A stretch of 32,000 nt of DNA, taken from NCBI RefSeq assembly GCF_000341395.1, contig NC_020304.1, forward strand, positions 1,980,001-2,012,000, written 5' to 3'. A program made the position numbers and the translations under genes. Numbering within the stretch: the first letter of the stretch is position 1; every line of letters starts with the position of its first letter. This document shows positions 4,755 to 24,991 of this stretch, in pieces. The stretch comes from Desulfocapsa sulfexigens DSM 10523 (GTDB taxonomy: Bacteria; Desulfobacterota; Desulfobulbia; Desulfobulbales; Desulfocapsaceae). The notes under the pieces were generated by a model. It was not told the DNA's origin. It was given only the letters and a program-made list of their open reading frames with translations, and made no database searches.

Positions 4755-7322
4755 ATGTCCCAACTACGTGCTCAAAGAGAAACACTTGAGGAGTTATGGA
4801 AGAAGGGGTTGAGTGGTCAGGCTCTGCTTCTCGAGCAAAGTCGACTGGTTGATGGGTTTATTGCCACTCATTTCAATGCTGCGGCAAGTGAAAAAGCCAC
4901 AAAAGGAGTTGCCCTTGTAGCTCTTGGCGGATACGGGCGCAGTGAGCTTTTTCCATATTCTGATATCGATCTTCTAATTCTTTTTAGAGAAGATGCGAAA
5001 GAGGAAATGGAAAAAATTGCAAATGGTGTACTGTATCCTCTTTGGGATACCGGGCTTGAAGTGGGGCACAGTGTCCGAACTTTGGAAGAGTGTTTGGATT
5101 TTGCAAAAGAAGATTTCTTCTTTCAAGTTGCCATGCTCGACGCTCGTCTCCTGGTAGGGTCAAATAGGCTTTTTGATGAGCTCCTTGTTCGCTACAGGAC
5201 TCAATTTATAGAAGGCTCACGGGATGAGTTTGTTCATGCCATGAAAACCTTTCGCAGTGACCGAAGAAAGCGTTTTGGCAGCCACAGCTACCTCCTTGAA
5301 CCAAACATTAAAGAAAGCAAGGGTGGAATGCGGGATATCCAGGCCATGCTCTGGACTGCCGCCTTTGTTTTCGGGTTGGTAGATCTCGACGCAATAACTG
5401 GAGCGGGAATACTTCTTGAAGAGGAGAGGGATGCCTTTGGTGAGTCCTGGAATATGCTCACCAGGGTACGGAATCGTCTCCATTATATCAGTGGCAGAAA
5501 GAATGATCAGCTCTACTTTGAGCAGCAGGAAGAGGTTGCTACCGCCTTTGGGTATCAGGCTCAAGATGGGGTGCTCGGGGTGGAGCATTTTATGCGGGAT
5601 CTCTATGGGCATCTGCAGGTCATTGCCGTTACCACTGATCTCTTTTTTGATCATGTGGATGATGTTCTCGGTTTTGCCAGTGGAAAAGGGGCAAGGCTGC
5701 AGGTTGTAGAGAAAGGAATAGAGTGTCGGAATAATCGAATTCATCTTACGACCTCGGAAGAGGATCTGAAGAGTCGACCTTATCTGTTGATGCGTTGTTT
5801 TCTTGCCTCTGCAAAAACTGGTTTTCCTCTTCATCACAGAACCAGAAAAATGATCACTGGGAATCTGGACCTGGTGACAGACAAGATGAGAAGTTCGGCG
5901 CGAATGTCCAAGCCATTTTTTGAGATTCTTGAAAGTGGTGAGGATGTTTTGACGGTGCTTGAAGTTATGCTCGAAACGGGTTTGCTCTCCGCGTATATCC
6001 CGGAGTTCGGAAATATTGAGTTACTGGTTCAGCATGATATTTACCATATATACACTGTTGATCGGCATTTGTTGCAGAGTGTTGCAGATTTGCAGGAGGT
6101 TACCAGAAGTGAAGAGTCAGTTTTTCAGACCATAGCGTCACCGCACGTCCTGTTTCTTGCGACTCTGCTTCATGATATTGGAAAGGGTTCCGGGGGGGAT
6201 CACTCAAATATTGGGGCAGAGATGGTTGGTGCGGTAGGAAGGCGTCTGGGGCTGAACGATGCTGAGTGTGCCTGCCTTGAGTTTGTTGTTCGCTATCATC
6301 TGTTTATGCCCGAAAGTGCCCTGCGTCGGGACTTGAATGATGAGCAGTTTGTGCAGCGCTGTGCAGAAACAATTGGAGATACTGAACGTCTCGCCATGCT
6401 ATACCTGATATCGGTTGCGGATGCTCGTGCCACTGGTCCTTCAGCCTGGAGTGACTGGAAGGGGGCGCTTCTATATGAGATGTATATGAAGGTTCACCCG
6501 TATCTTCAGTTTCAGGCAGTGGATGATGTGCTACCGATGGTGGATCAGGGGCTTGACTGGTTGCGTGAGCAGGTTGCCTCTCTTATTGGTGATGAGAGAG
6601 AGTGCGGAGTGACGGTGGATGATTTTCCTCCTGACTATTTGCTAAGCTTTACCCCTGAGGCCGTTGCTGCACATGTTCGGATACGTTGTGAGAATTACAA
6701 GGTGCTCCAACAGAAAGCTATAATTTTTCCTCGCAAACGGCAGGCGCAGTGGTCGCTCCTTATTATGTGCCGGGATCGCCGTGGATTGCTGGCGAAAATT
6801 TGTGGAGTACTTGGCCTTCACAATCTGTCAGTGCTTAATGCCCAAATTTTTACCTGGAAGGATGGAAGCGCCGTGGATATTCTCGATGTCCTTCCTGAAG
6901 ATGGTGTTGAGTATGAAGAGAAGGATTGGCAGGCGATAAATGATGATCTTAACCTGGCCTTGAATCATCGACTTGGGCTCGGTCACAGGTTGTATAAAAA
7001 ACTTTCCTCTGGTATTGGCAGAGCTAAACGTTCTACAGGAACGAACGAAATTAGAGTAGTGGTGGATAATAAGGCATCTGACAACTACACTGTCGTGGAA
7101 GTATATTCGGATGACAGTCCTGGGCAGTTGTATCGTATAACTCAGACTCTTGCCGATTTTGGGATAAACATCTATCGGGCTTTCATCGCAACGGAGGTTG
7201 AGCAGCTTATTGATGTTTTTTATGTGCTGGACAGTCAGCAGGAAAAGATAGTGGAGCCTGCATTTATCAAGGAATTGCGAGATGGCGTTCTCTATGCAAT
7301 AGGCGGTGGATTGCAGGGGTAG
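4755..7322 (+). CDS. glnD: [Protein-PII] uridylyltransferase / uridylyl-removing enzyme
   Basis: It has the nucleotidyltransferase motif GGYGRSELFPYSDIDLLILF, the HD motif LLHDIGKG, and two C-terminal ACT-like segments. The ATG at 4755 is preferred over the TTG at 4743 given by the ORF track. Confidence 0.9.
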   Translation: MSQLRAQRETLEELWKKGLSGQALLLEQSRLVDGFIATHFNAAASEKATKGVALVALGGYGRSELFPYSDIDLLILFREDAKEEMEKIANGVLYPLWDTGLEVGHSVRTLEECLDFAKEDFFFQVAMLDARLLVGSNRLFDELLVRYRTQFIEGSRDEFVHAMKTFRSDRRKRFGSHSYLLEPNIKESKGGMRDIQAMLWTAAFVFGLVDLDAITGAGILLEEERDAFGESWNMLTRVRNRLHYISGRKNDQLYFEQQEEVATAFGYQAQDGVLGVEHFMRDLYGHLQVIAVTTDLFFDHVDDVLGFASGKGARLQVVEKGIECRNNRIHLTTSEEDLKSRPYLLMRCFLASAKTGFPLHHRTRKMITGNLDLVTDKMRSSARMSKPFFEILESGEDVLTVLEVMLETGLLSAYIPEFGNIELLVQHDIYHIYTVDRHLLQSVADLQEVTRSEESVFQTIASPHVLFLATLLHDIGKGSGGDHSNIGAEMVGAVGRRLGLNDAECACLEFVVRYHLFMPESALRRDLNDEQFVQRCAETIGDTERLAMLYLISVADARATGPSAWSDWKGALLYEMYMKVHPYLQFQAVDDVLPMVDQGLDWLREQVASLIGDERECGVTVDDFPPDYLLSFTPEAVAAHVRIRCENYKVLQQKAIIFPRKRQAQWSLLIMCRDRRGLLAKICGVLGLHNLSVLNAQIFTWKDGSAVDILDVLPEDGVEYEEKDWQAINDDLNLALNHRLGLGHRLYKKLSSGIGRAKRSTGTNEIRVVVDNKASDNYTVVEVYSDDSPGQLYRITQTLADFGINIYRAFIATEVEQLIDVFYVLDSQQEKIVEPAFIKELRDGVLYAIGGGLQG

Positions 7323-9070: not shown

Positions 9071-9099
9071 AATAGGTATGTTTACCTATTGTTTTTTTT
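9071..9099 (+). promoter_or_regulatory. AT-rich palindrome plus T-run upstream of the PEP-CTERM gene (weak terminator/attenuator or operator)
   Basis: AATAGGTA-tgtt-TACCTATT is a perfect 8-bp inverted repeat followed by GTTTTTTTT, about 65 nt before the ATG at 9164. Confidence 0.3.
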
Positions 9100-9163
9100 A
9101 AAAGGATACATTACTGTTCAATATATAAGTAAAAAGATATATGTAAAATACTGGAGGTTCATC

Positions 9164-10036
9164 ATGAGAATCAAAATACTCCCTATAGTAGCAGCCGGTT
9201 TATTAGTGTGTGGTGTTATCGAATCGAATGCTACGGAATTTAATGGAAGTGCCACAGGAGAATGGGTTAGAGGGTCAGTTGTCATTGACCAAAGTCTGTG
9301 GCCAGCGAATTATACCGGCGACGTGTGGGGAATGGTTAATCAGGATGACGGTGTCACCGATCCTTTAGCTACTCCACCACCCGCTACATCTCCAGCTTTC
9401 AGTCCGTCACAAAACCCGTCTGGAAGCCCAGCTATCCCGGATGAAAGCGTGTCGCCTACGGCACTTTTCTGGTGGGGAAACCCGGGTACTGGTCTTACAC
9501 AGCCTGGCTGGGATAAGGAGTCTTCACCTAATAAATTTAATTTTGATGGCGTGGGTAGTACAGCTCCTCTTGGTGTTATGGAGACCAACGCTGGTGAGAG
9601 GTTTAAGTTTGGTGACTTTTGGTATACAAACGGAGACACATGGAGCGCCAGGGGTGTGACAGCTGTTGATTTGGCTGTTGATTTTTACATCCAAGAGATT
9701 AACAAAGAATTTACGATGTCAGGTACATTTGGGATTCTGAACACTATAAATGATGGTGGGGATGTAGATGATCTTGTTTCCCTAAGCGGATTCCAAGGAA
9801 CAACAGAATATTTCAGCTATAACAATAAAGACTATATGTTTACTGTTCTTGGTTTTTCTCAAGATGGTGGGGTCACGATAATCAATAGTTACGTAGCTCC
9901 CGAAAATAGTATAAGCTATGCAGGGTTGTATGCTGAGATAGTAGAGGTTCCAGTCCCTGAGCCAGCAACTTTTCTGCTCTTTGGTGTTGGCGTGATAGGC
10001 TTGATTGGTACGAAATTTAGAAAGAAAAACGTATAG
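9164..10036 (+). CDS. Secreted PEP-CTERM sorting-domain protein (exosortase substrate)
   Basis: A GGAGG RBS lies 6 nt before the ATG at 9164. It has a signal peptide (MRIKILPIVAAGLLVCGVIESNA), a Pro/Ser-rich linker, and the C-terminal VPEPATFLLFGVGVIGLIGTKFRKK (PEP motif, TM helix, basic tail). Confidence 0.85.
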   Translation: MRIKILPIVAAGLLVCGVIESNATEFNGSATGEWVRGSVVIDQSLWPANYTGDVWGMVNQDDGVTDPLATPPPATSPAFSPSQNPSGSPAIPDESVSPTALFWWGNPGTGLTQPGWDKESSPNKFNFDGVGSTAPLGVMETNAGERFKFGDFWYTNGDTWSARGVTAVDLAVDFYIQEINKEFTMSGTFGILNTINDGGDVDDLVSLSGFQGTTEYFSYNNKDYMFTVLGFSQDGGVTIINSYVAPENSISYAGLYAEIVEVPVPEPATFLLFGVGVIGLIGTKFRKKNV

Positions 10037-10051: not shown

Positions 10052-10081
10052 TTGAACTCATATTGAGTGGGGTGTTATAAT
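10052..10081 (+). promoter_or_regulatory. Sigma70-like promoter for the lasso precursor gene
   Basis: TTGAAC (10052-10057), an 18-nt spacer, then TATAAT (10076-10081). The -10 overlaps the ATG at 10080, which argues that the precursor starts at 10137. Confidence 0.45.
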
Positions 10082-10136
10082 GATAGAGCAAAGTGAAGGC
10101 TCAGTTGATAATGGTAAAAAAGGAATTAGTTCCTCC

Positions 10137-10292
10137 ATGCCTCCTAAAAAATTAGAGTATTCAAAATCTATTCTTATTAATCATGGGTCTGTTGTGAGGC
10201 TAACTGCTGGATGTGCGGGTTCAGGGGCCGATTCTGGTACATATAGTGAGAGTTCATTTATTGGTCCCGATGGTTCATGTCAGTCAACTTGA
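10137..10292 (+). CDS. Lasso peptide precursor (A): 24-aa leader plus 27-aa core GCAGSGADSGTYSESSFIGPDGSCQST
   Basis: The leader MPPKKLEYSKSILINHGSVVRLTA has Tyr(-17), Leu(-12), Gly(-8) and Thr(-2), as in the YxxPxLxxxGxxxxxTx RRE-recognition motif. The core starts with Gly1 and has Asp8 as the ring acceptor. It sits next to the full set of maturation genes. Confidence 0.7.
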   Translation: MPPKKLEYSKSILINHGSVVRLTAGCAGSGADSGTYSESSFIGPDGSCQST

Positions 10293-10325
10293 TTCTTGTT
10301 GTTAATATGTAGTCACAAAGAGAAA

Positions 10326-10357
10326 GTCGAAACAGGGTATCTGTTTCGACTTTTTTT
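10326..10357. terminator. Bidirectional intrinsic terminator between the precursor gene (+) and the cyclase gene (-)
   Basis: A perfect 10-bp stem, GTCGAAACAG-ggtat-CTGTTTCGAC, is flanked by AGAAA upstream and T7 downstream. Confidence 0.8.
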
Positions 10358-10380
10358 GTGTAAAGTGGTTTTCACCTGTC

Positions 10381-12246
10381 TTATCTTGTGGATTTTACCC
10401 ACGTCTCAAGTGCTAGTGCAAACCAAATTTCCCAGTTTTTATTCCCTCTGTGAAAGGCGTTTTCTTTAAATGCTTTTTGTTTATCATTAAGAGCAGACAG
10501 GAATTTGTCTTGTTCTATCCATCCAACTTCTGAAGATAACATCTTTTCACTTTTCTCTGTCAAACTGTAAGAGTCGAAGGCTTTTCCGAAGAAAAACGAG
10601 AAGTCTGCTTTGCTTTGTCGCTTTCGAATTAATTCTGGTAATAAATGATTCTGTTTTTGTCGTAGTATTTTTTTTATCTCTCCTTGGAGGTTGTGTTCGT
10701 ACTCTGGTACAGAGAATGAAAATTCTGCTATTCTTCGGTCAAGGAATGGTGATCTGTATTCAAGTTTTGCAATAGCATGGTATCTATCCATGGTTTCAAG
10801 GAAAAATGTATGAGTTCCCATCGCAATAATCGTGTTCTGCAAAAGGTTTCCTAGATTTGAGGAGGTTGTTCTCTGGTCGGAAAGAAGGATCTTCTCTCGA
10901 ATATTACTACGGTTGACAAAGACTGGTGAAATCCATGCAGGAAAAAGCTTATTATTCTTATTACATAGATTCCTACGAATAGCATGTGGAACCAGTGGCC
11001 ATAAAATGTTGAAGAGAAAACGTTTTATGGTATGGAGTTGGTTTTGGGAAAAGGAATAGCGTAAATGTGAAAACAGTGCTGGATACCTTTTATTTTTCAA
11101 GAGATCCAGGTATGGGAAACCAGATCCGGAAAACCACTCATCCCCACCAATGCCGGAGAGTAGAATCCTGGAACCACTATTGGTAACTTGTTTGATCAGT
11201 GCATTACGCATTGAAATATTTGGTATGTCTGGTGGTTCATACGTTTTGTGAACTTGCTTTTGCCATTGAGGTTCGTTGAAGTGTTGTGAATCTATCAAGT
11301 TTACTGAAATATTGTGCTCTTTGGAGACGGCAAGAATATACAAACTCTCGTCAAAAGGTAAGCCTGGGAAAACCATTCCATACACTACGGGGGCTGGTTT
11401 GTTTTTGAGTCTCAAAATATTGTGTGCCATGCCAACGACACATGAAGAGTCTAATCCACCGCTAAGCTCAATGCTTATGGGTGTCGAACTCCTGAGCCTG
11501 CTGGTCACTGATTTATTAAAAATCTCCAGGAAATGATTGGTGTAGTCCTCAGATTTTTTGTAATAGATTTGCTTAGTCGAGTTAAATGACCAATATCTGT
11601 GGCTGGTAAGACCTTGGTGTGAAACGGTTAGGTAGTGACCAGGAGAGAGACGATTAATCCCTTGGAACAAGGTTTCAGTTTTACTGCAAAAAGAAAAGAA
11701 GAGATATTCAGCCACCATTCCTTCGTTTGGCGATAGAATGACATCCGGATGTTCAGCCAGCTGCTTAATCTCGGAACTGAAAAGAAATTGCTCTGGAGTG
11801 AAGTGGTAATAAAATGGTTTGACTCCAATATAATCCCTGACGCAAATTAATTGTTGTTTCAGTGGATCCCACAGGGCAAAAGCAAAATCACCCAATAGGT
11901 GTAGAAATCCATCTACACCCCATTTTTTATACGTATATATTATGAGTTGGCTGTCTGGTAAGGAACTGCTTTGCCGTATACCAAGCTTGTTGAACAATTC
12001 TTCTCGGTTGTCAATTCGAGCATCGGCGGTAATTACGAGACCAGTTTCCGAGTCAGTGTGTGGTAATATTTCGGTTAGTGATTCCGGTGTAGTGTGCAGC
12101 ATGCTGTGGCCAAAGCCGATATGCTCTTGAATTAATGTATTTGTCCCGTCAGGACCACGGTGAGCACTGCTTTTCGCCATTCCTTGCAGGTGCGATGGAT
12201 TAATTGGTCGATTGTCCGAGTGATATATTCCGAAAATGCCACTCAT
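10381..12246 (-). CDS. Lasso peptide isopeptide-bond-forming cyclase (asparagine synthetase B-like; C protein)
   Basis: 621 aa with an AsnB-like fold and the PP-loop SGGLDSS. The N-terminus is MSGIFG, so Ser replaces the glutaminase Cys nucleophile. Its ATG overlaps the kinase stop (ATGA). Confidence 0.85.
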   Translation of the reverse strand: MSGIFGIYHSDNRPINPSHLQGMAKSSAHRGPDGTNTLIQEHIGFGHSMLHTTPESLTEILPHTDSETGLVITADARIDNREELFNKLGIRQSSSLPDSQLIIYTYKKWGVDGFLHLLGDFAFALWDPLKQQLICVRDYIGVKPFYYHFTPEQFLFSSEIKQLAEHPDVILSPNEGMVAEYLFFSFCSKTETLFQGINRLSPGHYLTVSHQGLTSHRYWSFNSTKQIYYKKSEDYTNHFLEIFNKSVTSRLRSSTPISIELSGGLDSSCVVGMAHNILRLKNKPAPVVYGMVFPGLPFDESLYILAVSKEHNISVNLIDSQHFNEPQWQKQVHKTYEPPDIPNISMRNALIKQVTNSGSRILLSGIGGDEWFSGSGFPYLDLLKNKRYPALFSHLRYSFSQNQLHTIKRFLFNILWPLVPHAIRRNLCNKNNKLFPAWISPVFVNRSNIREKILLSDQRTTSSNLGNLLQNTIIAMGTHTFFLETMDRYHAIAKLEYRSPFLDRRIAEFSFSVPEYEHNLQGEIKKILRQKQNHLLPELIRKRQSKADFSFFFGKAFDSYSLTEKSEKMLSSEVGWIEQDKFLSALNDKQKAFKENAFHRGNKNWEIWFALALETWVKSTR

Positions 12247-13205
12247 AGTGTGGTGTCAACTTTATTTGTTGTAGAGATTTTGATGATGGTTTTCATAATT
12301 TCTGGGAGTGATTGAATGGTGCGAGGGTATTTGAGGCGGTAAAATTGAGTTGAACTGTTTTTGATTAGTTCTGCAAGATTAGTTAATTGTGTAGTAGTTT
12401 GTTTTGAGTCTGTAATGTCCAATGGAAAACAGTGTTTGATGAGTTCGATGAGGGCTGATGCCCTTGGGATGGGTTCCAGGGAAATTGATGAGGTATTATA
12501 TTGTTGCTCAGGGTCATTTAGGAAAAATATGGTGGAAATGGGAATCGATTGCTTCTGGTTACTTTTCGAAACTGTAACTCTTCTTTTGGGGGCGTAGTGG
12601 CAGACAGCAGTGGTTTTGTTTTGTGATGCAGGAAGTAAGGTGAGGCTGTCGCTAAGAAGTCGTAAGCCCTGGTAGCTTGGAATACCTACCATGGTGGAAT
12701 TATTCGTTTCAAGAAGAAGGCAGTCGTCAGTTATCAGAGTGTGTCCCTGTCCATAAAGGTATGCAGCAAGAGTAGATTTTCCCCAACCAGATTCTCCACA
12801 GAAACCGACTAAAGAATCTCCGATTTGTACGCAACTGGCATGAATAATAAGCTGCCCTTTGTGGCTGAGTAAACGTGGAATGGTTTGGTCAAGAAGCAGG
12901 TGGCGTAGGGTGTTGTCAGGCATGCCAGTGTTGCAATATGATTTGATCTTGTTGGTTTCAGGTTCAATCTTGAAGTCGACAAGTTGTGGAAAACGGAGCC
13001 AGTAATATTCCTTTTCTTTTCCAACAGAAATGGAGATTTTTCCGTTGGACAGTCGCCAGTGATGGCGCCAGTCGATACCTGTTCTGGTAGCTTTAGAGTT
13101 GTTTGATGACTCAAAAAAAAGAGTAGGCAGGGAGTTGTCGCGTATTTGCAGTTCAGGAAGTGGGATATTGCTCTCGATGATGTGGTGAAATACTGAATAT
13201 CTCAA
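12243..13205 (-). CDS. HPr kinase-like (HprK-related) serine kinase, predicted lasso-precursor kinase
   Basis: 320 aa from a TTG start. It has the Walker A GESGWGKST within GFCGESGWGKSTLAAYL, and an N-terminus YSVFHHIIESNIPLPEL typical of HprK-related kinases. It lies between the B1 and C genes. Confidence 0.75.
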   Translation of the reverse strand: MRYSVFHHIIESNIPLPELQIRDNSLPTLFFESSNNSKATRTGIDWRHHWRLSNGKISISVGKEKEYYWLRFPQLVDFKIEPETNKIKSYCNTGMPDNTLRHLLLDQTIPRLLSHKGQLIIHASCVQIGDSLVGFCGESGWGKSTLAAYLYGQGHTLITDDCLLLETNNSTMVGIPSYQGLRLLSDSLTLLPASQNKTTAVCHYAPKRRVTVSKSNQKQSIPISTIFFLNDPEQQYNTSSISLEPIPRASALIELIKHCFPLDITDSKQTTTQLTNLAELIKNSSTQFYRLKYPRTIQSLPEIMKTIIKISTTNKVDTTL

Positions 13206-13271
13206 TGGTTTGTTGCTGCTAGAGCTGATTTGTCATCTTTGTACATAAGAGATCAAAGAATGTAATATTTT

Positions 13272-13547
13272 TTAGGAAGGGGAGATAAGCCCAGCATCCA
13301 GTAACTGTTGCAGGAGCTCAGTAATGTCAATTTCCAGCTGTTGTTTTCCTATTTCATAAATACTCAAAAGGTGGCTTACGAGACTATCAAGGTTTGAGCC
13401 ATCTTGAAGCATTTCCAGTACATGACTGCCAACATCATTGAGGCCAAAGTAGTTCTCACTTTTCATGTCGAGTAAAACTGTTTCTCCATCAATCTCCTGC
13501 CTGAGAACATCTTTTGACAATTTGTATACTTGAGTTTTTATAATCAT
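13272..13547 (-). CDS. PqqD-family RiPP recognition element (lasso B1)
   Basis: 91 aa. The segment QEIDGETVLLDMKSENYFGLNDVGSHVLEML...IDITELLQQLLDAGLI is a typical PqqD/RRE. Confidence 0.85.
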   Translation of the reverse strand: MIIKTQVYKLSKDVLRQEIDGETVLLDMKSENYFGLNDVGSHVLEMLQDGSNLDSLVSHLLSIYEIGKQQLEIDITELLQQLLDAGLISPS

Positions 13548-13679
13548 AATTTTGAAAGGAAACTTTTAATCTATATTACATGAAGTTTTTATATAAGAAT
13601 ATAGTGAGATATCGATATGTTATTTCTCTGGTGAATGCCGTCTGACCAGACTTTTACTAAATATTTTTGATGCAGTATT

Positions 13680-14129
13680 TTACCATTTGAAGACTGATAT
13701 TACCGTGTATAATTCGTGTTCAGCGGCTCCTGTTACAATCTTGCTGCCACACTGAGACCATGCATGAGCCTCTAATCCTTTGTTTGACAACTTGTCTTTT
13801 ACTATCCCAACATAGAGTACACCAGGGAGATTGTATCTGTAAAGCATTCGATGTGCTGTTAGGGCCTGTACCAGGCAAGTGCTTTTCCAGGGAGTATATA
13901 GGACGGCTCTATTTATTGCTCTACTTACCAAATGAACGCTGCTCATTTCTGTTTGGGATAGAAGAGGGAGTTGCCTGATACTTTTCTGCTGATCAAGCGA
14001 GCGCGTAAGTAGCTTGAAGGGGAGTGTTAAGAGAGCAAAACGCATAATACCAAGAATTACAAAAGCCTGTAAAAAAAGTTTTTTTTCTTCGAATGATAGT
14101 TTGTTGAATTTATGAATTTTAGTGACCAT
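13680..14129 (-). CDS. Lasso peptide biosynthesis B2 protein (transglutaminase-like Cys leader peptidase)
   Basis: 149 aa. It has the catalytic Cys context WKSTCLVQALTAHRML and the His context LEAHAWSQCGSKIVTG. Confidence 0.85.
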   Translation of the reverse strand: MVTKIHKFNKLSFEEKKLFLQAFVILGIMRFALLTLPFKLLTRSLDQQKSIRQLPLLSQTEMSSVHLVSRAINRAVLYTPWKSTCLVQALTAHRMLYRYNLPGVLYVGIVKDKLSNKGLEAHAWSQCGSKIVTGAAEHELYTVISVFKW

Positions 14130-14171
14130 TAATTTTCATAGCTCCATTAAGAGTCTCTTTGTGGATGAAAT

Positions 14172-14852
14172 TTAGTAATGTAAAAGAGAACCTTCGTTTT
14201 TTGCTACTTTTAAACCATAATAAATGGAAACAAAACCAGTCGCTAATGAAACTATAGAGAGTATGGCGAGGAATAGAAGCTGATTATGTACATCAATAAT
14301 TCCTGCCCCATTTAAGAGTATCTGGCGTATCGCCTCCAGTCCATGGGTGATTGGAAGTATCACCGAGAATGGTTTGAGCCAACCTGGTAGTACGGTTACC
14401 GGATACATTACTCCACCAAGCAATCCAGAACTCATAATCATTAACCCACCGATCGGATTACCCTGTTTGAAGACAATTATAAAAGCGGCCGAGACAAGGC
14501 CAATACCAAAAAAAGGGAGTAGTGTGAGCAGAAATGCCAGAGACAATGCGATAATGTTCACTGATTGTATCGACATATCAAAGAGGTAAATACCTACAAG
14601 AATATAAAAGAAAATTCGGAAGCTGGTGGAAAAAAGCTTGTACACATAGGAGGACAGTAAAATAGTGATGATGGATGTTGGGGTTACCAGAAGTGATTCA
14701 AGGGTACCAACAACCTGCGAGGTGCGAATTTCGTTGGCAAATGTGTTGGTAGAGATGGTGAAGTAATCTGAAAGTGCTATTCCAATGATTACAAAAGAAA
14801 AATAATCACCACCATAGGGTTCCAGTTGAGAGACTTGGTTGCCCTCAAACAT
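14172..14852 (-). CDS. ABC-2-type transporter permease, main reading frame (C-terminal 226 aa)
   Basis: It is multi-TM and hydrophobic and lies directly downstream of the ABC ATPase. The expected N-terminal segment is in a different frame (see 14789..14995). Confidence 0.75.
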   Translation of the reverse strand: MFEGNQVSQLEPYGGDYFSFVIIGIALSDYFTISTNTFANEIRTSQVVGTLESLLVTPTSIITILLSSYVYKLFSTSFRIFFYILVGIYLFDMSIQSVNIIALSLAFLLTLLPFFGIGLVSAAFIIVFKQGNPIGGLMIMSSGLLGGVMYPVTVLPGWLKPFSVILPITHGLEAIRQILLNGAGIIDVHNQLLFLAILSIVSLATGFVSIYYGLKVAKNEGSLLHY

Positions 14853-14995
14853 TTTAGATAGAAGAAAAATGAAAAGGTAGTGAGTATAATACCAAACCCC
14901 TGTGTTGCATATTGCATGCGGTAGCTGGTCGCAATTTTGAAATCCCGCTTGAAAAAAGCGAAAGGTTTTGCAAAAAGTGTTGGCCTTGCCCTCAT
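14789..14995 (-). pseudogene. N-terminal fragment of the same ABC-2 permease in another frame (apparent 1-nt frameshift)
   Basis: The sequence MRARPTLFAKPFAFFKRDFKIATSYRMQYATQGFGIILTTFSFFFYLK looks like an ABC-2 permease N-terminus plus TM1. Its ATG overlaps the ATPase stop (ATGA). A -1 shift at the CTAAAATG run (about 14850-14857) joins it to MFEGNQVSQLEPYGGDYF... Confidence 0.5.
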
Positions 14996-15819
14996 ATTGA
15001 ATTGTCCCTAGTGGTATTTATGCCTGCTCCAGCAAGTGGTGAATTCTGAAAAAAGTCAACCAGGTTGCTGAATGCCAGTTCAATGTTCTGGGAACCAGAG
15101 TCTGACATCTCTTCTAATTTTCCACTGTAAAGAACCTTTCCTTTATGGAGTATGGTCGCATGATCACATATCTCTTCAGCTTCATGGAGATTATGTGTAC
15201 ACCAGATAATAGTTTTTTGTTCCTGTCGGGCAAGGGTCTCTTTAGTGAAAGTGAGGAGCTTTCTGGTGGCAATGGGATCGAGACTGGTAGTGGCCTCGTC
15301 CATAAGGAGAACTTCTGGATCAGAAAGCATGGCTCTTGCAATTGCCAGGCGCTGTTTCTGGCCGGAAGAATAAGACATGAATCGAGAATCGGCTTTGTCC
15401 TCCATTCCAGTGAGTTGCAAGGCTTTGTTGATTCGTTCAGCCTTTACTGAGCCATGTAAATTATAGAGTGTGGCAAAAAAATCGAGATTTTCACGTCCGG
15501 TAAGCCGCCAGTAGAAAGTTCGGTCATTCGTGCTGACCAGCCCAATTTTATTTCTGATTGCCAGAGATTGTGTGGCCAGGGAGAGTCCTGAAATTGATCC
15601 TTCACCACTGTCAGGGGTAACCAGAGTGGAAAGAATTTTGATAAGTGTTGTCTTGCCGGCACCATTTGGTCCAAGTAAACCCATGATTGTTCCTTTTTCA
15701 ACTGTCAGGGAGACGTTGTCAAGAGCAAGGGTTTGACGGGGCTTGCGAAACAAAAATGTCTTCCAGTTTCGTTCAGTAAAGGTTTTTGAAATATTATGGA
15801 GCTCAATTGCTGGAAGCAT
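14992..15819 (-). CDS. ABC transporter ATP-binding protein (export/immunity component of the lasso cluster)
   Basis: Walker A GPNGAGKTT, signature YSSGQKQRL, Walker B LLMDEATTSLD, H-loop CTHNL. Confidence 0.9.
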   Translation of the reverse strand: MLPAIELHNISKTFTERNWKTFLFRKPRQTLALDNVSLTVEKGTIMGLLGPNGAGKTTLIKILSTLVTPDSGEGSISGLSLATQSLAIRNKIGLVSTNDRTFYWRLTGRENLDFFATLYNLHGSVKAERINKALQLTGMEDKADSRFMSYSSGQKQRLAIARAMLSDPEVLLMDEATTSLDPIATRKLLTFTKETLARQEQKTIIWCTHNLHEAEEICDHATILHKGKVLYSGKLEEMSDSGSQNIELAFSNLVDFFQNSPLAGAGINTTRDNSI

Positions 15820-15864
15820 ATAATTATGTCAGGAAGGTAGTGTGCGAGAAAAATGATCTGGCGA

Positions 15865-15893
15865 ATTATACGTGACAGCGAAGGGGATGTAAA
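15865..15893 (-). promoter_or_regulatory. Sigma70 promoter of the lasso maturation/export operon
   Basis: On the minus strand: TTTACA (15893-15888), a 17-nt spacer, then a perfect TATAAT (15870-15865), about 45 nt upstream of the ATPase ATG. Confidence 0.55.
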
Positions 15894-15935: not shown

Positions 15936-15965
15936 CCCCCTTTTCCAAAAAAAATGAAAAGGGGG
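15936..15965 (-). terminator. Strong hairpin downstream of the ComEA-like gene (terminator-like, no clear U-tail)
   Basis: A perfect 10-bp stem, CCCCCTTTTC / GAAAAGGGGG, encloses a 10-nt A/T loop, 29 nt past the stop at 15994. Confidence 0.45.
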
Positions 15966-15993
15966 CCAGGTGATTGTCAGGTTGGTTGGAAAG

Positions 15994-20345: not shown

Positions 20346-21809
20346 TCATGGCTTGGATTTTTTTAATGTATTGGTGAATAGGTTTAATACGGATTTCTGC
20401 TCCGCTGTAAGATCCTTGAATTTGAATCCATGGATGTGCTTTTCATCCTGTGTTGCAATCCACAGATGCTCAATGGTAAATTCCAATGGTGGAATGTTTG
20501 CGGAATCCTGGTTCTCAAAGTTGATTTTGGTGAAAAATGTCGATTCCAGCGTTGTCAGTTGCGGGATTGAGGCCATAAAGCCGCTTTTGGATATATTGGT
20601 TATCGTTCCATCCAGGTATCTGTCCTTTTCGGTGGTGTAATACCGGGCGGGAATAGAGACAGCATGCCTTGTATCACTGCGTATAATGTTAAAAATGTCA
20701 AGAGACTGACATATGAACTTGAGAGCTTTACAGGGAGCACCGCAGGAATCACGTTTTCTGCGGAATCTGCAACTGTAGCGCAGCAGATCCAGGATAAAGA
20801 ATGACGAAATAAAATAAAAGATCAGGTAGATTGCAAAAAACAGGAAGAGAGTGGAGTCGGTCAAATTATAAATTCGTCCCACAATACTGATGCTGCCAAG
20901 AAGGATACTGAGACCGATAATAATTTTTACGGTGTTTTCGCGGCTGAATCCATAGCGCATGAAAATATGATGTAAATGTTTTTTGTCAGCATGAAACGGA
21001 CTGGTTCCCTGGAGGATCCTCTTTGTCATCACTGTCAGCGTGTCGGCAATGGGAATACTGAGAATTAACAGGGCAGATATGGGAGACATGCAGGCATTGT
21101 CGCCCTGCGTCATTCCAAGTGACATAAAGGCAAGGGCAAATCCCAGTGACAGACTTCCGGCATCGCCCATAAAGAGCTTGGCCGGATGCCAGTTAAAACG
21201 AAGAAATCCCAATAGAGCACCTGCAAAAGCCAGGTTCAGAAGTAAAAATGTCTGATTTTGGGCAAGAGAGGCGTGAGCGGCAAATAACAAAAACGCAACA
21301 AAGCCAATCCCGCCGGCCAAGCCATCCAGCCCGTCAATAAGGTTGATGGCATTGATGACCCCTAGAAGACAAAAAATAGATATAAGAACAGACAGCCAGT
21401 ATCCCGGAATAATAATATCTCCCAGCCCGAGAAGATTGCCGAAGGAAACCAACCTGATATTACTAAAATAAATGAGGAGGGCGACAGCAAGGATCTGGCC
21501 CATGAATTTCTGACGATGTCCCAACTCTTTCAAATCGTCGAGAAACCCGATAAACAGCATCACCGTTAATCCCGCAAAAAAACCCCTTAGGCCGGTTGCC
21601 GGCATAATAAGTGCCGCTGCAAAACAGGCGGAAATGACAAAACCAAGACCACCCACGAGGGGTTTTGGGTCCACGTGTACCTTCCGTTCACTGGGCCAGT
21701 CGAGCAAATTTATCTTTTTGGCTATGTTTGCAAGCTTGGGCAGTATGAACATAGTCACGAAAAGTGCTATTAAAAAAATAAGTATGGGGCGGACATCCGA
21801 GTGAATCAT
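20346..21809 (-). CDS. WecA/MraY-family (GT4) polyprenyl-phosphate sugar-1-phosphate transferase fused to a C-terminal PilZ domain
   Basis: The N-terminal ~340 aa are polytopic with LDDLKELG, INLIDGLDGLA and MGDAGSLSLGF. The C-terminal ~110 aa carry the two PilZ c-di-GMP motifs: RSDTR (RxxxR, aa 377-381) and NISKSG ([D/N]xSxxG). Confidence 0.85.
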   Translation of the reverse strand: MIHSDVRPILIFLIALFVTMFILPKLANIAKKINLLDWPSERKVHVDPKPLVGGLGFVISACFAAALIMPATGLRGFFAGLTVMLFIGFLDDLKELGHRQKFMGQILAVALLIYFSNIRLVSFGNLLGLGDIIIPGYWLSVLISIFCLLGVINAINLIDGLDGLAGGIGFVAFLLFAAHASLAQNQTFLLLNLAFAGALLGFLRFNWHPAKLFMGDAGSLSLGFALAFMSLGMTQGDNACMSPISALLILSIPIADTLTVMTKRILQGTSPFHADKKHLHHIFMRYGFSRENTVKIIIGLSILLGSISIVGRIYNLTDSTLFLFFAIYLIFYFISSFFILDLLRYSCRFRRKRDSCGAPCKALKFICQSLDIFNIIRSDTRHAVSIPARYYTTEKDRYLDGTITNISKSGFMASIPQLTTLESTFFTKINFENQDSANIPPLEFTIEHLWIATQDEKHIHGFKFKDLTAEQKSVLNLFTNTLKKSKP

Positions 21810-22532: not shown

Positions 22533-23009
22533 TTATAACAACGGAAGCATCAATGTGTTGGAGACGATATTGTTGTTCGTAAAGCCGTGTTTACGATAAA
22601 AGGCTTCTGCCTTATCATTAAGAACATGGACGATAATAACACGGACACCGACCTGTTCGGAAACGTTAATTGCTCGGGCAAGAGCATCTTTTAACAAACC
22701 TCGGCCAATATTCTGCCCCTGCCAGTTACAATCAACCGCCAAGCGACCAAGCACTAGAGCAGGGATAGGATCAGGCATATTCTTTTTTATGCGGTTTGTC
22801 GCTTCAGCACGAGCAACGCTTCCAGCAGCTAGAGCATAGTACCCTATCACCTGATTTTTAAAACAAACCACATACGTGCGTGACCCGCCACTCTGTTCGT
22901 TTTTCAATGCCCGGTGGATAAGCCATTCGTTGAGTGAAACTGTTCCACAATCAAAACCACTTAATAGGTGATTCGCTGTCAATTGTTCAGGAGCGCTTAT
23001 TTTTCCCAC
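22533..23009 (-). CDS. GNAT-family acetyltransferase toxin (TacT/KacT/ItaT-like)
   Basis: 158 aa. It has the DUF1778-partnered GNAT toxin hallmarks FDCGTVSLNEWLIHRALKNEQSGGSRTYVV and NWQGQNIGRGLL. It overlaps the antitoxin gene by 13 nt. Confidence 0.85.
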   Translation of the reverse strand: MGKISAPEQLTANHLLSGFDCGTVSLNEWLIHRALKNEQSGGSRTYVVCFKNQVIGYYALAAGSVARAEATNRIKKNMPDPIPALVLGRLAVDCNWQGQNIGRGLLKDALARAINVSEQVGVRVIIVHVLNDKAEAFYRKHGFTNNNIVSNTLMLPLL

Positions 23010-23284
23010 GGTGCTTTTGATAACAGTAGCTTACGGATAGCTTTGTTTTCATTAAGTGGCGTTTCTAAAGCTTTCTCAAAATCAGAAAATGCTTTATCAT
23101 CCAAGACAAAATTACGCCGATCACACAAAACTTGCTCAGCCTCACGACATGACGCTTCAAGGATAAAATCGGTCATCTTTTTGTGACTTGCAGCACAAGC
23201 CTGACCAATCAGCTCCCTCTGTTCCGGAAATGCACGGAGACTAATTACAGATGTGCGACGTGCTGTTGTGTTACTTGGTTTCAT
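22997..23284 (-). CDS. DUF1778-family antitoxin (TacA/KacA-like)
   Basis: 95 aa. The sequence ISLRAFPEQRELIGQACAASHKKMTDFILEASCREAEQVLCDRRNFVLDDKAFSDFEKALETP is typical of DUF1778. A GGAG RBS lies upstream. Confidence 0.85.
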   Translation of the reverse strand: MKPSNTTARRTSVISLRAFPEQRELIGQACAASHKKMTDFILEASCREAEQVLCDRRNFVLDDKAFSDFEKALETPLNENKAIRKLLLSKAPWEK

Positions 23285-23818: not shown

Positions 23819-24991
23819 CTATTGAAAAATCTTTTTTACACCTTCCCAACCCAGACGAAAAGGACGGCACACATTGTAGAGGTAGCATAACTTTCCAGGA
23901 AACGTAAATCTGCGGTAGTCTTCAATGGTAGGATTAAACAGCATTGTCAGAATAAGCCGTAACCGTGCCATGTTCGAATCCATGCACTTAAGTTGCCAGG
24001 AAGTGAAACGGCTGTTTTCGCCCTGGATTGTATTGCTCTTTGCAGGATCAAGAAAGATATTCTCCACCGATGTAGCCATATTTAATGCGTGTTGGTCCAG
24101 CCTCAGAATTTCCATGACTTTCTTTGGCATCTCTGTTGCAAAGAGACGTTGTGCTGCAAGCAGCCCTGTCGCAACCATTCTTTTTGCAGACCATTGTTCT
24201 GCAAGAAAAAGGACCAAATTCCAATCCATCTTTTTGTTTTGTGTGACAATTTCATGAACAGAAAACAACCATTCCAGGCGACCCCAGATATGTTTGGAAC
24301 CGTGAATGCAAAGATAGATAAGAAGATCCTCATTGCTTAGTGAAGGAACAGTGTAGTTCAGTAATTGAGCGTCAATCAGGCGATCTTGAAAAACATCCAT
24401 TGTTAACGCGTGTGGCAAACACCGGCCAGATAACTCCCAATGCAATTCCACGATAACGCCGGATTGAGAGTGGATGAAATTCAGATTGTCTTCCGTTTTT
24501 ATAAGGTGCTTCAGCTGTGAATGTGAAAATTGGATTTCAGGGGTATATCCTGATTTATTGAGGATTTCATAGACGGAAGAGACATCATTTATACTTACAA
24601 GGACATCGAGATCACAAAATGGACGAAGAGAGAGGTCGTTATAGAGATTACAGGCAAGTAGCGGGCCTTTGAAAGCGACAGCTGAAATATTATGTTCAGT
24701 AAGTAAGTTGATAAGCTGAATCAACACACCGACTTTACCAAGGTTGGATATGCCAATAGACCGCACGGTTCTTTTAATATCAGCAGCAATATTCTCTGGT
24801 ATCAGTTCCGGGCAACAATTGTTCCATGATGAGTGAATTAATGGTAGAAGTCCGTGGCGTGTGGCGAGTGAAAAAAAATGATTCAGGTCTATACCATCAT
24901 TTATCGCCTCAACAACTTTCTTGCGTAAAGCTGATGGCTCAATTGTTTTCAGGGAATAGAGGATGAGGTGTTGGCAATTATTTTGATTCAT
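23819..24991 (-). CDS. Nucleotidyltransferase family protein (NTP_transf_5-like)
   Basis: 390 aa. The region AVAFKGPLLACNLYNDLSLRPFCDLDVLV and the overall pattern match the 'uncharacterised nucleotidyltransferase' family. It overlaps the wecB 3' end by 14 nt. Confidence 0.65.
   Translation of the reverse strand: MNQNNCQHLILYSLKTIEPSALRKKVVEAINDGIDLNHFFSLATRHGLLPLIHSSWNNCCPELIPENIAADIKRTVRSIGISNLGKVGVLIQLINLLTEHNISAVAFKGPLLACNLYNDLSLRPFCDLDVLVSINDVSSVYEILNKSGYTPEIQFSHSQLKHLIKTEDNLNFIHSQSGVIVELHWELSGRCLPHALTMDVFQDRLIDAQLLNYTVPSLSNEDLLIYLCIHGSKHIWGRLEWLFSVHEIVTQNKKMDWNLVLFLAEQWSAKRMVATGLLAAQRLFATEMPKKVMEILRLDQHALNMATSVENIFLDPAKSNTIQGENSRFTSWQLKCMDSNMARLRLILTMLFNPTIEDYRRFTFPGKLCYLYNVCRPFRLGWEGVKKIFQ

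Follow-up and report, generated by a model that had tools for sequence, protein, structure and literature searches.

A kinase-linked lasso-peptide gene cluster with a convergent precursor gene in Desulfocapsa sulfexigens

Lasso-peptide gene clusters that include a kinase are known from several bacterial groups. In the firmicute clusters the genes are arranged in the order C A K B1 B2 (N) D, with a single transporter gene D (PMC5067487, PMC6993621). Kinase-containing clusters with split B1 and B2 genes were described for Proteobacteria in 2016, including that of Sphingobium yanoikuyae encoding the kinase SyanK, for which the order A B1 B2 C K D is given in the accounts drawn on here (PMC5067487, PMC8498205, PMC9266682). 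A cluster of the deltaproteobacterium Bradymonas sediminis, with the kinase BsfK, was characterised in 2023, and further clusters were noted in Acidobacteriaceae and Sphingomonadales (PMC10368454). We have studied a locus of this kind in Desulfocapsa sulfexigens DSM 10523, within a stretch of 32,000 nucleotides of contig NC_020304.1 (positions 1,980,001 to 2,012,000; hereafter the window, from whose first nucleotide all coordinates are counted). We consider it very likely that the region 10052-15893 is a genuine kinase-linked lasso-peptide cluster with a convergent precursor gene, the product of which is probably phosphorylated.

An earlier note on this DNA had proposed that it holds a kinase-associated lasso cluster, and this is now backed by family models, catalytic motifs and comparative data. 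The note had also stressed that an architecture known from the Firmicutes occurs here in a Gram-negative genome. The surprise in this does not survive comparison, since such clusters have been published for Proteobacteria (SyanK, BsfK) and a scan of species-representative genomes reveals relatives of the kinase in 275 of them, mostly from Gram-negative lineages. Nor is the two-component ABC-2 exporter a firmicute trait, as the firmicute clusters are described with a single D gene (PMC5067487), and the suggested analogy with paeninodin and pseudomycoidin breaks down at the substrate, where the defining feature is absent; the precursor ends in Thr and not in Ser. The cluster belongs to a kind that is known in Gram-negative bacteria, and is not a new kind of system.

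Six consecutive open reading frames (ORFs) run in the same direction on the minus strand between 10381 and 15819, where the earlier note had put them, and a precursor gene faces them from the plus strand. The features of the locus, with protein lengths in amino acids (aa), are as follows.

14992-15819, minus strand: ATP-binding cassette (ABC) transporter ATPase, 275 aa, DrrA-like ATP-binding subunit
14172-14995, minus strand: ABC-2 permease, frameshifted in the assembly; the intact form is 274 aa
13680-14129, minus strand: lasso leader peptidase B2, 149 aa, a transglutaminase-like Cys protease
13272-13547, minus strand: B1, the recognition element for peptides made on the ribosome and modified after translation (RiPPs), 91 aa, PqqD family
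12243-13205, minus strand: HprK-like P-loop kinase, 320 aa, TTG start
10381-12246, minus strand: probable lasso macrolactam cyclase, 621 aa, Asn-synthetase-like
10137-10292, plus strand: gene of the precursor peptide, 51 aa (70 aa in the annotation, which starts at the ATG at 10080)
10323-10353: hairpin of 13 bp between the convergent cyclase and precursor genes, from a terminator scan
15865-15893, minus strand: predicted operon promoter, sigma-70-like, TTTACA-17-TATAAT, 11 of 12 consensus matches
10052-10081, plus strand: predicted promoter-like site before the precursor gene, TTGAAC-18-TATAAT with a TG extension, 10 of 12 matches
15936-15966, minus strand: GC-rich hairpin CCCCCTTTTC...GAAAAGGGGG on the 3′ side of the upstream ComEA-like gene, read from the sequence

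The B2 protein matches the full length of the model NF033537 (lasso_biosyn_B2) with 97.1 bits (cut-off 33), and PF13471 with 79.7 bits. The Cys of its STCLVQAL motif and the His of its EAHAW motif, both present as first described, can be lined up by eye with the motifs QCLQRAL and EGHAW in BsfB2, a characterised protein; for this and other comparisons we used translations of the bsf genes printed in PMC10368454. A phmmer search of the PDB with B2 returned no match. The B1 protein scores 61.5 bits with PF05402 (cut-off 23.4), and among the NCBIfam entries it fits best the two models for lasso PqqD chaperones, with 62.9 and 53 bits (cut-offs 70 and 80). It also matches the lasso RiPP recognition elements of solved structure TbiB1 (5v1u, E value 2e-9) and TfuB1 (6jx3, E value 3e-6), as well as BsfB1 (E value 1e-15). 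Both assignments made in the earlier note hold on these models.

The model that matches the cyclase best by far is that of the lasso isopeptide cyclases, NF033535, at 452 bits (cut-off 525). The AsnB model TIGR01536 gives 236.6 bits where 267 are needed, and the XrtA amidotransferase model TIGR03108 gives 199.1 bits where 816.9 are needed. The PP-loop motif SGGLDSS is present, as had been noted. The N-terminus reads MSGIFG, in which Ser replaces the Cys nucleophile of AsnB, and Ser occupies position 2 in 58 of the 62 kinase-linked homologues. There was no lasso cyclase among the matches of this protein to solved structures. Although the score lies below the curated threshold, the data point strongly to a lasso cyclase and not to an AsnB or an exosortase-type amidotransferase. 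At the other end of the operon the ATPase scores 112.7 bits with PF00005; its top NCBIfam match is drrA TIGR01188, at 209.7 bits and under the cut-off, and it is an exact match to AGF78340.1 of D. sulfexigens. The permease matches PF01061 with 49.9 bits on a 226-aa part.

The kinase is matched by PF07475 at 29.1 bits (cut-off 33.3) and by TIGR04352 at 46 bits (cut-off 200), and phmmer against the PDB finds weak HprK matches only. It aligns with BsfK over residues 112-309 with 27% identity across 202 aa (E value 2e-15), and the catalytic motif H148-G163-G166-G168-K169-S170-D186-D187 of BsfK (PMC10368454) is reproduced with identical spacing as H122, G137, G140, G142, K143, S144, D160 and D161. 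The protein therefore has the His, the P-loop GxxGxGKS and the Asp-Asp pair of the HprK family, and these positions are invariant or nearly so in 26 homologues. The AlphaFold (AF2) model has a predicted local distance difference test score (pLDDT) of 89.7, and the folds that it matches best are those of phosphoenolpyruvate carboxykinases, with a template modelling (TM) score of ~0.5 on the query, and of the HPr kinase 3tqf, with 0.60 on the target. The modelled fold is that expected for the kinase superfamily.

The ORF at 10137-10292 encodes the leader MPPKKLEYSKSILINHGSVVRLTA followed by the core GCAGSGADSGTYSESSFIGPDGSCQST, and lies convergently to the operon as the earlier note had reported. 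Residues Tyr-17, Leu-12, Gly-8 and Thr-2 of the leader match the motif common to about 97 precursors found beside homologous kinases, and Gly1 and Asp8 of the core agree with the ring pattern of the same family. Every element of the YxxPxL leader, Thr-2, Gly1 and Asp8 is present save Pro(-14), which is here Ser. The window holds a single match to the precursor pattern, compared with three occurrences in 300 shuffled windows (0.01 per window), and we found no second precursor either in the intergenic gaps or in the window as a whole. The -10 box of the promoter-like site at 10052-10081 overlaps the ATG at 10080, so the 51-aa form starting from the ATG at 10137 is the more likely product. Its leader (10137-10208), at 24 aa from that ATG, is the shortest seen. 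The core shares Cys2, Cys24 and a GSCxxT tail with that of locus L006 (GCPGSGSDSGGPGNSAPYGPGGSCGTT), which suggests a link between ring and tail through Cys2 and Cys24.

Homologues of the kinase number at least 127 in the protein collection. Among the relatives in the species-representative genomes, the closest, at 55% identity, is from a Desulfocapsa metagenome-assembled genome (MAG), and others come from Desulfobulbales, Acidobacteriota, Nitrospira, Gammaproteobacteria, Methylomirabilota and Chloroflexota. A metagenome scan with a single kinase sequence found none, its patterns being too strict; using an alignment it found 80 loci. A cyclase homologue adjoins the kinase in most of the 80 genome loci fetched, often together with B1 or B2. 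The precursor pattern Y..P.L...G.....T.[GSA]......[DE] is found in 55 of 86 sequences (85 loci and the window), and in further metagenome loci. The convergent placement of the precursor recurs in L006 and in L008, a Desulfobulbaceae MAG.

A sister lineage of the D. sulfexigens cluster is represented by the NCBI MAG GCA_975001335.1 and three Logan assemblies (L002-L005), and is 97.6% identical across the cluster. The ratio of nonsynonymous to synonymous substitution rates (dN/dS) lies between 0.04 and 0.43 across the genes, and the precursor and B1 proteins are 100% conserved. The cluster appears to be under purifying selection. As a separate observation, the ATPase gene has a dS of 0.18 against this lineage (L002 7386-8213), compared with 0.02-0.04 for the other genes of the cluster, and may be a patch of recombination.

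The operon and the precursor gene each have a candidate promoter. The near-consensus TTTACA-17-TATAAT that had been remarked upon is present at 15893-15865 and is the top promoter-like match of the region. Promoter-like sites as a whole show no excess, with 17 found against 15.2 expected in shuffles. The hexamers and the spacer are the same in L002, while the 40 nt upstream have diverged, and TTTACA-17-TATAGT stands upstream of the ATPase gene in L008. The site before the precursor gene (10052-10081) is likewise identical in L002. We infer that these two sites act as promoters. Within the operon, the overlaps of stop and start (ATGA) described in the earlier note are real at two junctions, between ATPase and permease (14992-14995) and between kinase and cyclase (12243-12246). 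Gaps of 42, 133 and 66 nt separate the genes at the remaining three. The hairpin at 10323-10353 is strong, with folding energies of -25.2 and -25.8 kcal/mol and z scores of -4.9 and -5.8. The earlier note had called it a shared bidirectional terminator; a proper U-run is present on the plus strand only, and towards the operon the tail (CUCUUUGUG) is weaker. For the precursor transcript the sequence is that of a canonical intrinsic terminator. The GC-rich hairpin at 15936-15966, which the terminator scan did not pick up, sits between the ComEA-like gene and the lasso operon. Scans of the window for Rfam families and for tRNAs gave no match.

From the observed gene identities and catalytic motifs, and from the precursor and its conservation, a pathway can be drawn in which the order of steps, the ring residues, the phosphorylation and the export are predicted. 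Transcription of the precursor gene, for a peptide of 51 aa (or 70 aa as annotated), would run convergently to that of the operon and would probably start at a promoter of its own. The PqqD-type B1 would bind the leader through Tyr-17, Leu-12 and their neighbours. The HprK-like kinase would then phosphorylate a Ser or Thr of the linear, leader-bearing precursor, in the order followed by PadeK, ThcoK, SyanK and BsfK, after which B2 would cleave following Thr(-2)-Ala(-1). The cyclase would activate the side chain of Asp8 with ATP and join it to the amine of Gly1, creating a ring of eight residues with a threaded tail of 19, and the two-gene ABC-2 transporter would export the product.

Which residue might carry the phosphate? 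The lasso kinases characterised before BsfK all act on a C-terminal Ser (PMC9266682, PMC8498205), and BsfK phosphorylates Ser3 in the ring of BsfA, which has Ile at position -2 (PMC10368454). The D. sulfexigens core matches neither described class, because it ends ...C-Q-S-T, with Thr27 and no C-terminal Ser, and because it has Ala at position 3 and Thr at -2 where a BsfK-type substrate has Ser/Thr3 and Ile/Val-2. Ser5 is the sole hydroxyl residue of the ring. It is kept in all five cores of the Desulfocapsa clade (window, L006, L007, L008 and L012), three of which have a C-terminal Thr, and for this reason it is our first guess for the acceptor, with Thr27 as the alternative. The choice is made with low confidence, because the rings of the family are rich in Gly and Ser anyway. 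Among 44 family cores, Ser or Thr occurs at ring positions 2-7 in every one and in the last two residues of nine, while four end in Ser.

The strongest competitor is a system of the paeninodin/SyanK type, in which the kinase would (poly)phosphorylate the C-terminal residue with Thr27 taking the place of Ser. The precedent of the kinases that came before BsfK speaks for it, as does the C-terminal Thr of the window, L006 and L008 cores (ST, TT and TT), and BsfK tolerated a Ser-to-Thr swap at its own site (PMC10368454). However, the Ser that defines such substrates is missing here, the cores of L007 and L012 within the same clade end in HK or RP, and among the 44 family cores only nine have Ser or Thr in the last two residues. 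We judge the C-terminal reading to be somewhat unlikely. A further proposal is that the product represents a new subtype, phosphorylated at ring Ser5 or at the C-terminal Thr and perhaps with a Cys2-Cys24 link, and that ring phosphorylation is the common mode in the family. The latter would follow from the fact that most members of the kinase-linked family lack a C-terminal Ser. Taken in full this is doubtful, and we put it forward tentatively.

Several types of C-terminus recur among the kinase-linked cores, namely ...Cys-Leu (in Nitrospira and Terriglobia), ...Arg-Pro, ...Arg-Ser and ...Thr-Thr/Ser-Thr (in Desulfocapsa), as read from loci L023, L030, L033, L052 and L055-L085 (Nitrospira and Acidobacteriota) and others.

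Returning to the identification of the locus as a genuine cluster with a probably phosphorylated product, a number of observations weigh against it. For both the kinase and the cyclase, even the best-matching NCBIfam and Pfam models give scores under their curated cut-offs. No lasso product of the cluster has been observed so far, and the related bsf cluster was silent in all hosts tried (PMC10368454). Ser(-14) of the leader is unique, 96 of the ~97 genuine family precursors having Pro. Gly and Ser are so abundant in the rings that a Ser found there points only weakly to the phosphorylation site. The permease frame is broken in the window into ORFs of 68 aa (14789-14995) and 226 aa (14172-14852), so that the cluster called complete in the earlier note has all its gene types but a frameshifted permease in this assembly. 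Finally, codon 179 of the kinase is changed from CAG to TAG, converting Q179 to a stop, in all four sister assemblies L002-L005 (L002 10535-10537). The rest of the sister kinase gene has just two nonsynonymous and eight synonymous differences, so that the tailoring step seems to have been lost recently. In the sister lineage the kinase is thus probably inactive, and it looks dispensable there.

These observations could be taken to mean that the cluster is silent or decaying in the D. sulfexigens lineage and yields no mature product. In addition to the broken permease, the nonsense codon of the sister kinase and the Pro(-14)Ser change, the Shine-Dalgarno sequences are weak and the kinase starts with TTG. 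Yet the frameshift comes down to a single base in a homopolymer, a run of A5 (T5) near 14865-14869 that is A6 in L001, a 17,042-bp Logan contig (SRR25712206) identical to the window save for the one extra A. There the permease is an intact PF01061 protein of 274 aa, and its start codon shares ATGA with the stop of the ATPase gene. The break is either a homopolymer error of the reference assembly or a lesion of the sequenced stock. Against decay, moreover, dN/dS is well under 1 for all the genes, the promoter hexamers as well as the precursor and B1 proteins are conserved in the sister lineage, and BsfA with Ala at -14 was still processed (PMC10368454). We think it unlikely that the cluster is silent or decaying; it is apparently functional.

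The cluster lies within a block, galU-cysC-[lasso cluster]-PEP-CTERM gene-glnA-glnD, that is syntenic across several Desulfocapsa genomes, and in which identities of 87-95% for the flanking proteins contrast with only 38-60% for the lasso enzymes. The PEP-CTERM/choice-of-anchor-K gene (9089-10036, plus strand) is directly upstream of the precursor gene on the same strand. The same placement is seen in L006 (~11138-11887) and L008 (~5816-6559), i.e., in three species of Desulfocapsaceae/Desulfobulbaceae; the three PEP-CTERM proteins are 39-41% identical and the flanking GlnA proteins 92-93%. The gap between the PEP-CTERM and precursor genes is only ~25 nt in L006, which suggests that they are co-transcribed there. 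We considered a functional link between the lasso cluster and the PEP-CTERM gene but did not need it, since the entire region from galU to glnD is syntenic and shared ancestry suffices. The idea that the Asn-synthetase homologue is an exosortase/PEP-CTERM amidotransferase or a true AsnB, and the neighbourhood the mark of a PEP-CTERM system, can draw on this conserved adjacency, on the GenBank label and on the score with TIGR03108, but with both rival cut-offs missed, the lasso cyclase model far ahead, the nucleophilic Cys replaced by Ser, B2, B1 and a matching precursor all adjacent, and the adjacency accounted for by common descent, it is wholly improbable.

Several other genes of the window were noted. 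A gene for a PF14907 'uncharacterised nucleotidyltransferase' (23819-24991, minus strand, 182 bits) was considered, because the psm and bsf lasso clusters carry an uncharacterised nucleotidyltransferase (PsmN, BsfN), which we likened to it by description, and homologues of this gene are immediate neighbours of the kinase at 32 of the 80 related loci. We left it out as a PsmN/BsfN-like partner, since in the window 8 kb separate it from the cluster, its neighbours are polysaccharide genes (WecB/WecG), and the L006 locus lacks it. A WecA-like glycosyltransferase of family 4 (20346-21809, minus strand, 145 bits) has a weak C-terminal match to PilZ (22.2 bits, cut-off 22.5), which hints at control of polysaccharide initiation by cyclic di-GMP. 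At 22533-23284 on the minus strand a GNAT acetyltransferase of 158 aa overlaps an upstream ORF of 95 aa, a layout like that of a GNAT toxin-antitoxin pair. The sister MAG L002 has neither the pair nor the WecA-like gene, and there the nucleotidyltransferase gene comes directly after the 179-aa gene.

The literature searched contains no paper that ties Desulfocapsa to lasso peptides or cites these locus tags or accessions. In GenBank the cyclase (AGF78335.1) is labelled 'asparagine synthase (glutamine-hydrolyzing)', and both B2 (UWK_01780) and the 70-aa precursor ORF (UWK_01776) 'hypothetical protein'; the present analysis corrects these annotations. D. sulfexigens DSM 10523 is cultured and publicly available, making the cluster directly testable. 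Should the product form, the source of this lasso peptide would be a strict anaerobe that disproportionates sulfur, and the peptide would show where a large and mostly uncultured Gram-negative kinase family places the phosphate. That placement is informative because most substrates of the family are without the C-terminal Ser on which the characterised firmicute and Sphingobium enzymes act.

How does the locus compare with systems already described? One comparison is with BI-32169, a class III lasso peptide that has one disulfide bond from ring to tail and is not known to be phosphorylated. The resemblance is by feature only, the D. sulfexigens core having a ring Cys (Cys2) and a tail Cys (Cys24) that could tie the tail to the ring. 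The sources differ; BI-32169 is actinobacterial, whereas D. sulfexigens is a sulfide-producing anaerobe.

The firmicute paeninodin and pseudomycoidin systems, compared by description (PMC5067487, PMC6993621), share the split B1 and B2 and an HprK-family kinase that acts on the linear precursor. They differ in phylum, in gene order, in having a single D gene in place of the ABC-2 pair, and in their C-terminal Ser acceptor. The SyanK cluster (Zhu et al., 2016, FEBS Lett), as recounted in PMC5067487 and PMC9266682, is by description proteobacterial with split B1 and B2, a kinase and a transporter, and a Sphingomonadales MAG (L083) is found among the relatives of the D. sulfexigens kinase with 34% identity. 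According to the same accounts the terminal Ser of SyanA is (poly)phosphorylated, whereas the D. sulfexigens core ends in Thr, and the order A B1 B2 C K D contrasts with D1 D2 B2 B1 K C and a convergent A.

Our locus has much in common with the bsf cluster of Bradymonas sediminis FA350 (BsfA/B1/B2/C/K/N/D; PMC10368454). Both come from Gram-negative hosts of the former Deltaproteobacteria and have split B1 and B2, an HprK-like kinase in which the H-G-G-GKS-DD motif is spaced identically, a leader of the YxxPxL type, a Gly1-Asp8 ring and a core without terminal Ser. The differences lie first in the substrate, where BsfA has Ile(-2) and the acceptor Ser3 in contrast to Thr(-2) and Ala3 in D. sulfexigens. 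The two kinases show no alignment in their N-terminal halves, the nucleotidyltransferase gene is inside the bsf cluster whereas the sole PF14907 gene of D. sulfexigens is 8 kb distant, and the gene order differs, with the precursor gene of D. sulfexigens convergent to the genes that would process its product.

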